Made by a program: the position numbers and the translations under genes
NCBI GenBank assembly: GCA_951812955.1
Contig: OX638340.1
Coordinates: 2,144,001 to 2,208,000 of the forward strand
Length of the DNA stretch: 64,000 nucleotides
DNA from: an uncultured Gemmatimonadota bacterium
GTDB taxonomy: Bacteria > JAAXHH01
Direction of reading: 5' to 3'
Notes under the pieces: model-generated
What the model saw: the letters and a program-made list of their open reading frames with translations, nothing else
Told to the model about the DNA's origin: nothing
Database searches by the model: none
Shown here: positions 8,721 through 8,835 of the stretch, in pieces
Numbering within the stretch: position 1 is the stretch's first letter
Layout of the letters: each line of letters begins with the position of its first letter

Positions 8721-8790
8721 GCCTGATCATCCCTGATTAACCCTGAACAACCCTGATCAATCCTGATCGATCCTGCTAAACTCTGATCGC
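8721..8790. repeat. Seven tandem copies of a 10-bp unit (g/c/t)CCTGAtcaa with exact 10-bp phasing, immediately upstream of a promoter
   Basis: gcctgatcat ccctgattaa ccctgaacaa ccctgatcaa tcctgatcga tcctgctaaa ctctgatcgc, read at 8721-8790. Confidence 0.7.
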
Positions 8791-8798
8791 CCCCATCC

Positions 8799-8827
8799 TT
8801 GACCCTCATCACCGGCCCCCCTATACT
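8799..8827 (+). promoter_or_regulatory. Near-consensus sigma70 promoter TTGACC-N17-TATACT, 8 nt upstream of ATG 8836
   Basis: TTGACC at 8799-8804, 17-nt spacer, TATACT at 8822-8827, ATG at 8836. Confidence 0.45.
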
Positions 8828-8835
8828 CTCCTACC

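Follow-up and report, generated by a model that had tools for sequence, protein, structure and literature searches.

Promoter-proximal contingency repeats include the TAAA tract of nadA in Neisseria meningitidis and the 7-bp repeats of hmw in Haemophilus influenzae, and tandem direct-repeat operators include the F1-F2-F3 sites of OmpR. Phased A-tracts that curve the DNA, as well as UP elements, also occur upstream of strong promoters. In Helicobacter pylori, the length of a T-tract at sabA tunes the binding of RNA polymerase (PMC4081817), and PHO boxes are composed of 11-nt direct repeat units (PMC2691820). In the pks island of Escherichia coli, an 8-bp variable-number tandem repeat (VNTR), ACAGATAC, is present upstream of clbR in 2-20 copies, and 20 copies give about 2-fold higher reporter output than 5 copies (PMC7364221). 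Here we describe an array of 10-bp units in a 64,000-nt stretch of DNA (the window) from an uncultured Gemmatimonadota bacterium (contig OX638340.1, positions 2,144,001 to 2,208,000). The array lies between a gene for a pyridoxal phosphate (PLP)-dependent enzyme and a gene for an ANKH-family membrane protein, beside the promoter of the latter. The closest kind of element is the intergenic bacterial VNTR or minisatellite, as at clbR and at loci of the multiple-locus VNTR analysis (MLVA) or mycobacterial interspersed repetitive unit (MIRU) type. We think that the array is probably a polymorphic decanucleotide VNTR that has no required function and that tunes the promoter incidentally at most. 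The functional element at the locus is best explained as the 45-bp block downstream of the array.

The repeat array is a real feature. The initial annotation had described seven consecutive 10-bp units with the consensus cCCTGAtcaa, and we recovered the same units by direct reading (gcctgatcat, ccctgattaa, ccctgaacaa, ccctgatcaa, tcctgatcga, tcctgctaaa, and ctctgatcgc), with Tandem Repeats Finder (8722-8788, period 10, 6.7 copies, 75% matches, score 71, consensus CCTGATCAAC), and with a repeat search, which found six in-register copies at a spacing of exactly 10 bp. These are head-to-tail tandem copies of a short unit, as in a VNTR or minisatellite, although the core of the sixth unit is degraded (to CCTGC). 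The pair CCTGA-N5-CCTGA occurs four times in the window, always within the array, versus 0.10 occurrences expected from shuffled sequences. Similarly, when up to 3 mismatches to the consensus are allowed, the array is the only run of seven units in the 64 kb, and two-unit runs in the window are at chance level. The array is non-coding, as an intergenic VNTR should be: it lies between the TGA stop codon of the PLP gene (8709-8711) and the ATG at 8836, the only open reading frames (ORFs) that overlap it are spurious ones of 48-49 aa, and its period is not a multiple of 3. Its right end abuts the core promoter, 8 bp 5' of the -35 hexamer, and it occupies the region from about -45 to -114 as counted from the predicted start site. 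The initial annotation also placed a CTGA core on the same face of the DNA at every turn. However, a turn of B-DNA takes about 10.5 bp, and since the 10.0-bp period of the array is shorter than that, the cores are not all on one face. Instead, they rotate by about 17 degrees per unit, or by about 100-120 degrees over the whole array.

To compare strains, we took the orthologous locus from 20-odd assemblies and read the region 5' of the ATG (loci on other contigs are given L numbers; see the table). The alleles have 3, 5, 7, 7, 7, 8, about 10, or about 11 units, plus a 2-unit remnant, and some loci have none. As expected for a VNTR, the copy number varies among loci whose adjacent genes are 93-100% identical in nucleotide sequence. 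The turnover of alleles appears to be fast: the 5-unit allele of L144 and the 7-unit allele of L145 are next to ANKH genes that are 99.8% identical and that encode identical proteins. The extra unit of L001 stands beside its twin, which is apparently a classic signature of slippage. Edge units are more stable than those inside the array, and in L123, L139, and L145 some internal units no longer have an intact core. The distance from a conserved gattgg to the -35 hexamer is 38, 58, 78, 78, 80, 88, 97, or 117 bp, and three of the eight alleles are off the 10-bp register (they have 9- or 12-bp units). Therefore, the 10-bp register is not preserved.

The sequence on the other side of the array behaves differently, and looks like a genuine conserved sigma-70-type promoter. 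In a promoter scan, TTGACC-N17-TATACT matched 10 of 12 consensus positions and was the sole promoter-like site in 7000-11000. The initial annotation had called this promoter near-consensus, had put it 8 bp from the array and 8 nt from the ATG (as measured from the end of the -10 hexamer), and had predicted a 450-aa membrane protein downstream. The distances are exact, and the protein belongs to the ANKH family (PF07260). In an alignment of 15 orthologous sequences, the hexamers and their spacings are invariant, except that the -10 hexamer is TATAAT in L137 and in distant relatives (the T, A, T, A and the final T never vary). There are no indels between the -35 hexamer and the ATG, so that the 17-nt and 8-nt spacings are both fixed. 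This invariance reaches L124 and L132, whose ANKH proteins are 69% identical and whose genome is much more A+T-rich. In both of these loci (2451-2512 in each), from an A+T-rich marine genome, TTGACC-N17-TATAAT-N8-ATG is kept 5' of the ANKH homologue, and so the leaderless-type arrangement would be old and conserved across genera.

The conserved hexamers, the fixed spacing, the start codon 8 nt from the -10 hexamer, and the missing Shine-Dalgarno sequence (the ATG is preceded by ctcctacc) are the features of a leaderless sigma-70-type promoter. Because of the fixed 8-nt spacing, because there is no Shine-Dalgarno sequence, and because the N-terminus of the ANKH protein (MYRSLFWFLLPLV) is conserved among orthologues from residue 1, we infer that the mRNA is most likely leaderless or nearly so. 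A scan for promoters and terminators found no terminator between the PLP gene and the ANKH gene, and some read-through from the PLP gene would be possible.

This promoter persists where the array does not. In a neighbour-joining tree of the first 600 nt of the ANKH gene, the array is restricted to a clade with at least 93% nucleotide identity. It is absent from both outgroup lineages (L002 and L141/L142, with about 88% nucleotide identity), whose spacers are unrelated. It is also absent within the clade from L136, L130, and L150, which have an AbiL-like two-gene defence module in the spacer. Despite having no array, L002, L141, L136, L130, and L150 have an intact promoter. As the array is missing from the outgroups and from the three module-bearing loci while the promoter is unchanged, the array is, to judge from these relatives, dispensable for the adjacent promoter. 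Furthermore, the octamer ccccatcc forms the right-hand limit of every insertion, deletion, and replacement in the relatives. As all of these rearrangements end no more than about 10 bp from the -35 hexamer, the functional promoter appears to start there, and nothing 5' of ccccatcc seems to be required. The 45-bp promoter block thus consists of ccccatcc, TTGACC, the 17-nt spacer, TATACT, and the 8 nt that lead to the ATG.

Table. Features of the locus and array alleles in related loci. Coordinates are those of the window unless they are prefixed with another locus.
Feature	Position	Strand	Basis or description
9-bp in-frame tandem repeat, TGGTCAGCT x4.6	7148-7188, in ORF 6448-7368	minus	Encodes DQADQADQAGQSDQTDQAD
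PLP-dependent enzyme gene	7650..8711	+	ORF; Pfam PALP, E 5e-52
Decanucleotide tandem array, 7 units, consensus cCCTGAtcaa	8721..8790	.	Strain-variable minisatellite (VNTR)
Conserved ccccatcc block	8791..8798	+	Directly 5' of -35; alignment, and breakpoints in L136, L130, L141, L137, L150
-35 hexamer TTGACC	8799..8804	+	Promoter scan; invariant in 15/15 orthologous sequences
-10 hexamer TATACT	8822..8827	+	Promoter scan; 17 nt 3' of -35
ANKH-family membrane protein gene, 450 aa	8836..10188	+	ORF; Pfam ANKH PF07260, E 8e-54
Class-V aminotransferase gene	10322-11584	-	Downstream of ANKH gene, convergent
AbiL-like module	L136:522-2213, L130:453-2230, L150:10-1134	minus	Low G+C; orthologous to window ~8712-8798
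Array allele, window			7 units
Array allele, L001			8 units; extra ccctgaacaa beside its twin
Array allele, L140			7 units, 3 substitutions
Array allele, L138			3 units
Array allele, L143, L144, L146, L148, L149			5 units; one allele shared by five independent assemblies
Array allele, L145, L147			7 units, one of them 12 bp
Array allele, L123			~10 units, three degenerate: attcagattt, atccagtttt, atccagatta
Array allele, L139			~11 units, one of them 9 bp
Array allele, L137			~2-unit remnant joined to truncated PLP gene

The rates of change tell the same two parts of the locus apart. Nucleotide diversity (pi) across all eight array-bearing alleles is 0.164 in the array, as compared to 0.194 at the four-fold degenerate sites of the PLP gene and 0.142 at those of the ANKH gene. 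In the 45-bp promoter block, pi is 0.029, which is 5-7 times below the values for the array and the four-fold sites. Overall, the array seems to evolve at about the neutral rate.

To explain these patterns, we propose that the array originated within one shallow clade, in the non-coding DNA that separates the PLP stop codon from the ANKH promoter. Whole units, and occasionally imperfect ones, would then have been gained and lost by slipped-strand mispairing or by unequal recombination between units, and the sequence of the array would drift at about the neutral rate. Any effect on expression would be small and incidental, and would come from an altered distance or rotation of the upstream DNA relative to RNA polymerase. 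As to where the first units came from, the TGA stop codon of the PLP gene (8709-8711) lies within the unit-like sequence aaCCCTGAgg, 10 bp before the array and 15 bp before the CCTGA of the first unit. The array may, speculatively, have been seeded by a duplication of this stop-codon region (8706-8726).

As a VNTR, the array resembles that of clbR in that a short non-coding unit is repeated head to tail in an intergenic region beside a promoter and in that the copy number differs between strains (3 to about 11 in the array, 2-20 at clbR). The greater stability of the edge units is another trait of intergenic VNTRs. In contrast to the clbR repeat, which is in a 5' untranslated region, the array is on the upstream side of the -35 hexamer; its unit is 10 bp long and, with 75% matches, degenerate, and its host belongs to an uncultured, probably sponge-associated lineage.

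Several observations weigh against an array without function. First, pi is 0.09 in the CCTGA core as compared to 0.238 at the other five positions of the unit (permutation p 0.001), which is what a core that binds a protein would be expected to show, but the comparison is confounded: a reduced core diversity would also follow automatically, because alleles of different lengths align units that are not orthologous and because the core was defined as the part that the units share. The low diversity of the CCTGA core is our main reason for not dismissing a function of the array entirely. Second, for some pairs of strains, the substitutions in the spacer are far below what the synonymous divergence (dS) predicts. 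For example, the window and L140 have 4 mismatches in 87 bp, versus a dS of 0.18-0.36 in the flanking genes. Third, the array sits at about -45 to -114, which is precisely the location of upstream activator sites and UP elements, and it has persisted through about 5% nucleotide divergence. Finally, our search for further arrays (see below) was limited to the 64-kb window and 138 kb of related loci.

We considered whether the pairwise comparisons to dS reflect purifying selection on the spacer and rejected this, given that a sliding window shows a mosaic of recombination and that the diversity by site class is at the neutral level. In the 3' half of the PLP gene (8376-8455, 8576-8655), blocks with 25-35% mismatches alternate with blocks with 0-5%. 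Also, the window and L001 are identical over 8656-8893, coding DNA included. Such a mosaic suggests that this region recombines often, and a local recombination tract would account for the low spacer divergence of at least the pair of the window and L001.

The alternative that fares best, although we consider it unlikely, is that the array is a rheostat: slippage would shift the distance or rotation of upstream DNA, or the contacts of the C-terminal domain of the alpha subunit of RNA polymerase (alpha-CTD), so that the expression of the ANKH transporter would differ among strains or subpopulations. The end of the array is only 8 bp from the -35 hexamer, and the copy number varies between strains with identical ANKH proteins. 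There are precedents in the T-tract of H. pylori sabA (PMC4081817) and in the 8-bp VNTR of E. coli clbR (PMC7364221). The array shares with sabA-type contingency repeats a tract immediately 5' of a sigma-70-type -35 hexamer, a polymorphic length, and a presumed origin of this variation in slippage. Nevertheless, it differs from them in important ways. Contingency repeats that switch rapidly are near-perfect, and they switch at high frequency within a clone, whereas the units of the array are only about 75% alike, several alleles contain 9-bp, 12-bp, or degenerate units, and the variation is seen between strains. The neutral-like diversity of the array also argues against a rheostat, as does the fact that several lineages lack it completely while their promoter shows no compensating change (it is missing from many relatives). 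Also, each step of a whole unit is nearly a full turn, so little rotational change would be expected per step.

A second alternative is that the array is a set of binding sites: a response regulator of the OmpR/PhoB type, or a nucleoid-associated protein, would recognize the CCTGA cores and polymerize cooperatively along them. We think that this is quite unlikely. The geometry does fit, in that direct repeats with a 10-bp period adjoin the -35 hexamer and extend 5' from it about once per turn, with a short conserved core and a variable spacer, much like tandem operators with a period of 10-11 bp such as PHO boxes (PMC2691820). The location from about -45 to -114 is suitable as well, and, whether units of one array or different strains are compared, the CCTGA core varies less than the other positions of the unit. 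However, in operators of the OmpR/PhoB type, orthologous promoters keep the same number and register of sites, and the sites are found throughout a regulon, whereas here the number of sites ranges from 0 to 11 in orthologous promoters, the register is broken in three of the eight alleles, and internal cores have been destroyed in L123, L139, and L145. The promoter is another difficulty. Operators of this type usually accompany a weak -35 hexamer, and a near-consensus core promoter (here 10 of 12 positions) is unlike those that depend on an activator. Also, no regulator gene is adjacent to the array (there is no gene for a transcription factor or regulator within about 8 kb of it), and we found no second site in the 64-kb window or in 138 kb of related loci. 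The cooperative binding that the initial annotation had put forward is thus hard to reconcile with an array whose copy number varies so widely, whose register breaks, and which has been lost with the promoter unchanged.

Another idea is that the array would be a functional, copy-number-tunable upstream element, with its CCTGA cores contacted by a protein or by the alpha-CTD, and that gain or loss of units would set the level of the ANKH exporter in different strains of sponge symbionts. This seems improbable to us. It has one fitting observation, as the CCTGA core is less variable.

For other phased arrays, which the initial annotation had suggested looking for, we searched the 64-kb window and 138 kb of related loci and found none apart from the orthologous arrays; this too argues against a set of protein-binding sites. 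A scan of a contig collection for four phased CCTGA cores gave at least 120 unrelated matches, mostly (CCTGA)n pentamer tracts of Streptomyces and 10-mers from G+C-rich taxa. None of the matches listed are from Gemmatimonadota, and the scan is uninformative about a regulon in this genome. Among G+C-rich bacteria, tandem arrays of the 5-bp (CCTGA)n and 10-bp xCCTGAxxxx kinds are common (L003-L122); the CCTGA core was imposed by the search pattern, and we claim no enrichment. In many of the Streptomyces matches, the pentamer tract apparently starts at or near a putative stop codon, and it would give a TGA in all three frames. Several species of Dyadobacter have CCTGAC-type decamer arrays in common, and many GACCTGATCN arrays lie between genes and at the ends of contigs in the metagenome-assembled genome CAYUPN01 (five contigs, L121 among them).

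The single motif CCTGATCAA occurs 36 times in the window with at most 1 mismatch, versus 13 occurrences expected. We rejected this excess as a regulatory signal, as the copies outside of the array lie in coding DNA. Words of this kind are found at matching offsets in paralogous MacB-like genes (16167/19185 and 16848/19866), and because these MacB/FtsX paralogues share coding words, they would account for most of the excess. The window contains tandem paralogous genes for MacB/FtsX-type permeases at 15160-17571, at 18175-20589, and at about 21000-23000. Two other candidates were dropped. For switching based on Dam/GATC or on TGATCA, we found no further support, and TGATCA is neither avoided nor clustered elsewhere. 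A structured RNA was rejected as well, given no match to Rfam at E<=1 and no significant fold (RNA fold z-score of -1.8, DNA fold of -4.4 kcal/mol).

The initial annotation also raised the possibility of an intrinsic bend that activates transcription. We computed the path of the DNA with a wedge model and Bolshoy-Trifonov parameters, and the absolute angles should be taken as approximate. The predicted bend of the array is 34 degrees per 70 bp, which is at about the 95th percentile of the 70-mers in the window, but it is equalled or exceeded by 14% of mononucleotide shuffles. Seven copies of the perfect consensus would give 64 degrees and a phased A6 control gives 129 degrees, so the array reaches about a quarter of the control. 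No A or T stretch within the array reaches four bases. The region from -40 to -60, ctgatcgcccccatcc, is G+C-rich (the proximal bases are gatcgcccccatcc). Curved DNA and UP elements are characterized by phased A/T-tracts, strong curvature, and an A+T-rich region at -40 to -60, and none of these are present. Although the array is upstream of the -35 hexamer with a periodicity of about 10 bp, as phased A-tracts and UP elements are, and although any sequence with a 10-bp period adds small bends roughly in phase, it is very unlikely that bends repeated at each turn activate this promoter, given the modest curvature, the missing A4-6 tracts, the G+C-rich proximal part, and the dispensability of the array in relatives. 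Of the initial interpretation, then, the promoter is well supported, and the regulatory array and the curvature are not.

The spacer in which the array lies also appears to be a hotspot of insertion and deletion. The AbiL-like module consists of an AbiLi ATPase (E 2.5e-55 and 8.6e-51) and a DUF3226/AbiLii-like protein, and it ends no more than about 10 bp from the -35 hexamer. L141 and L142 have different genes beside an N6_N4 methyltransferase, and in L002 an AbiLi-like gene instead lies 5' of the PLP gene. In L137 (2200-2460), the PLP gene is in fragments, with an internal deletion that fuses it to the remnant of the array, and the ANKH promoter and gene are intact.

The PLP gene is syntenic in most of the orthologous loci. 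Its product belongs with the D-cysteate sulfo-lyases, ACC deaminases, and D-cysteine desulfhydrases. It scores 364 bits against the CuyA-like model of NCBIfam, under the cutoff of 450 bits, and it is under every equivalog cutoff. Other neighbours are an MR/MLE enolase-type enzyme, an EPSP synthase, an SGL lactonase, an SSF symporter, and MacB-like permeases.

Other repeats in the window vary in length as well. About 1.5 kb from the array, a 9-bp repeat lies within a gene for an F510_1955-like protein of a glycosylhydrolase family, and relative to the window, L138 has 12 aa fewer in this tract and L139 has 3 aa fewer. In the ANKH protein, the central loop (about 9475-9545, residues ~214-236) is rich in Gly, Ala, Glu, and Gln and varies widely in length, so that the orthologues total 444-488 aa. 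This loop is apparently built of AGQD/EP-like repeats, while the transmembrane parts are nearly invariant. As the 9-bp VNTR and the ANKH loop also vary among strains, the lineage appears to be generally prone to slippage. Farther away are long arrays with a 72-bp period, of a 24-residue leucine-rich-repeat-like type (56998-59042), a 255-bp unit repeated 3.6 times with 99% identity (59311-60239), and a 24-bp unit repeated 4.1 times with 98% identity (25292-25391). These three large repeats may encode eukaryote-like or surface repeat proteins that are typical of sponge symbionts.

The close homologues of the ANKH protein are from metagenomes, and one cluster with 90% identity is labelled as a Gemmatimonadetes bacterium. 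Three of the related contigs belong to the whole-genome shotgun projects LXNJ, LXNI, and MKWU, which are metagenomes of Mediterranean sponges (PMC5099237, PMC5649159). Thus, the genome of the window is most likely that of a sponge-associated member of the Gemmatimonadota.

Our results are a caution for the annotation of promoters: a striking, helically spaced repeat beside a good promoter looks like a fast-changing and dispensable minisatellite once relatives are compared, and the unremarkable 45 bp that adjoin it are the conserved functional element. Relatives should be checked before a function is assigned to periodic repeats. In addition, the locus gives a clear and conserved case, from the Gemmatimonadota, of what is probably a leaderless promoter, and the array could be used as a VNTR marker for strains of this uncultured lineage of sponge symbionts. 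If the array does tune expression, then rheostat regulation, which is known mostly from pathogens, would be extended to a symbiont and to a transporter of the ANKH family.

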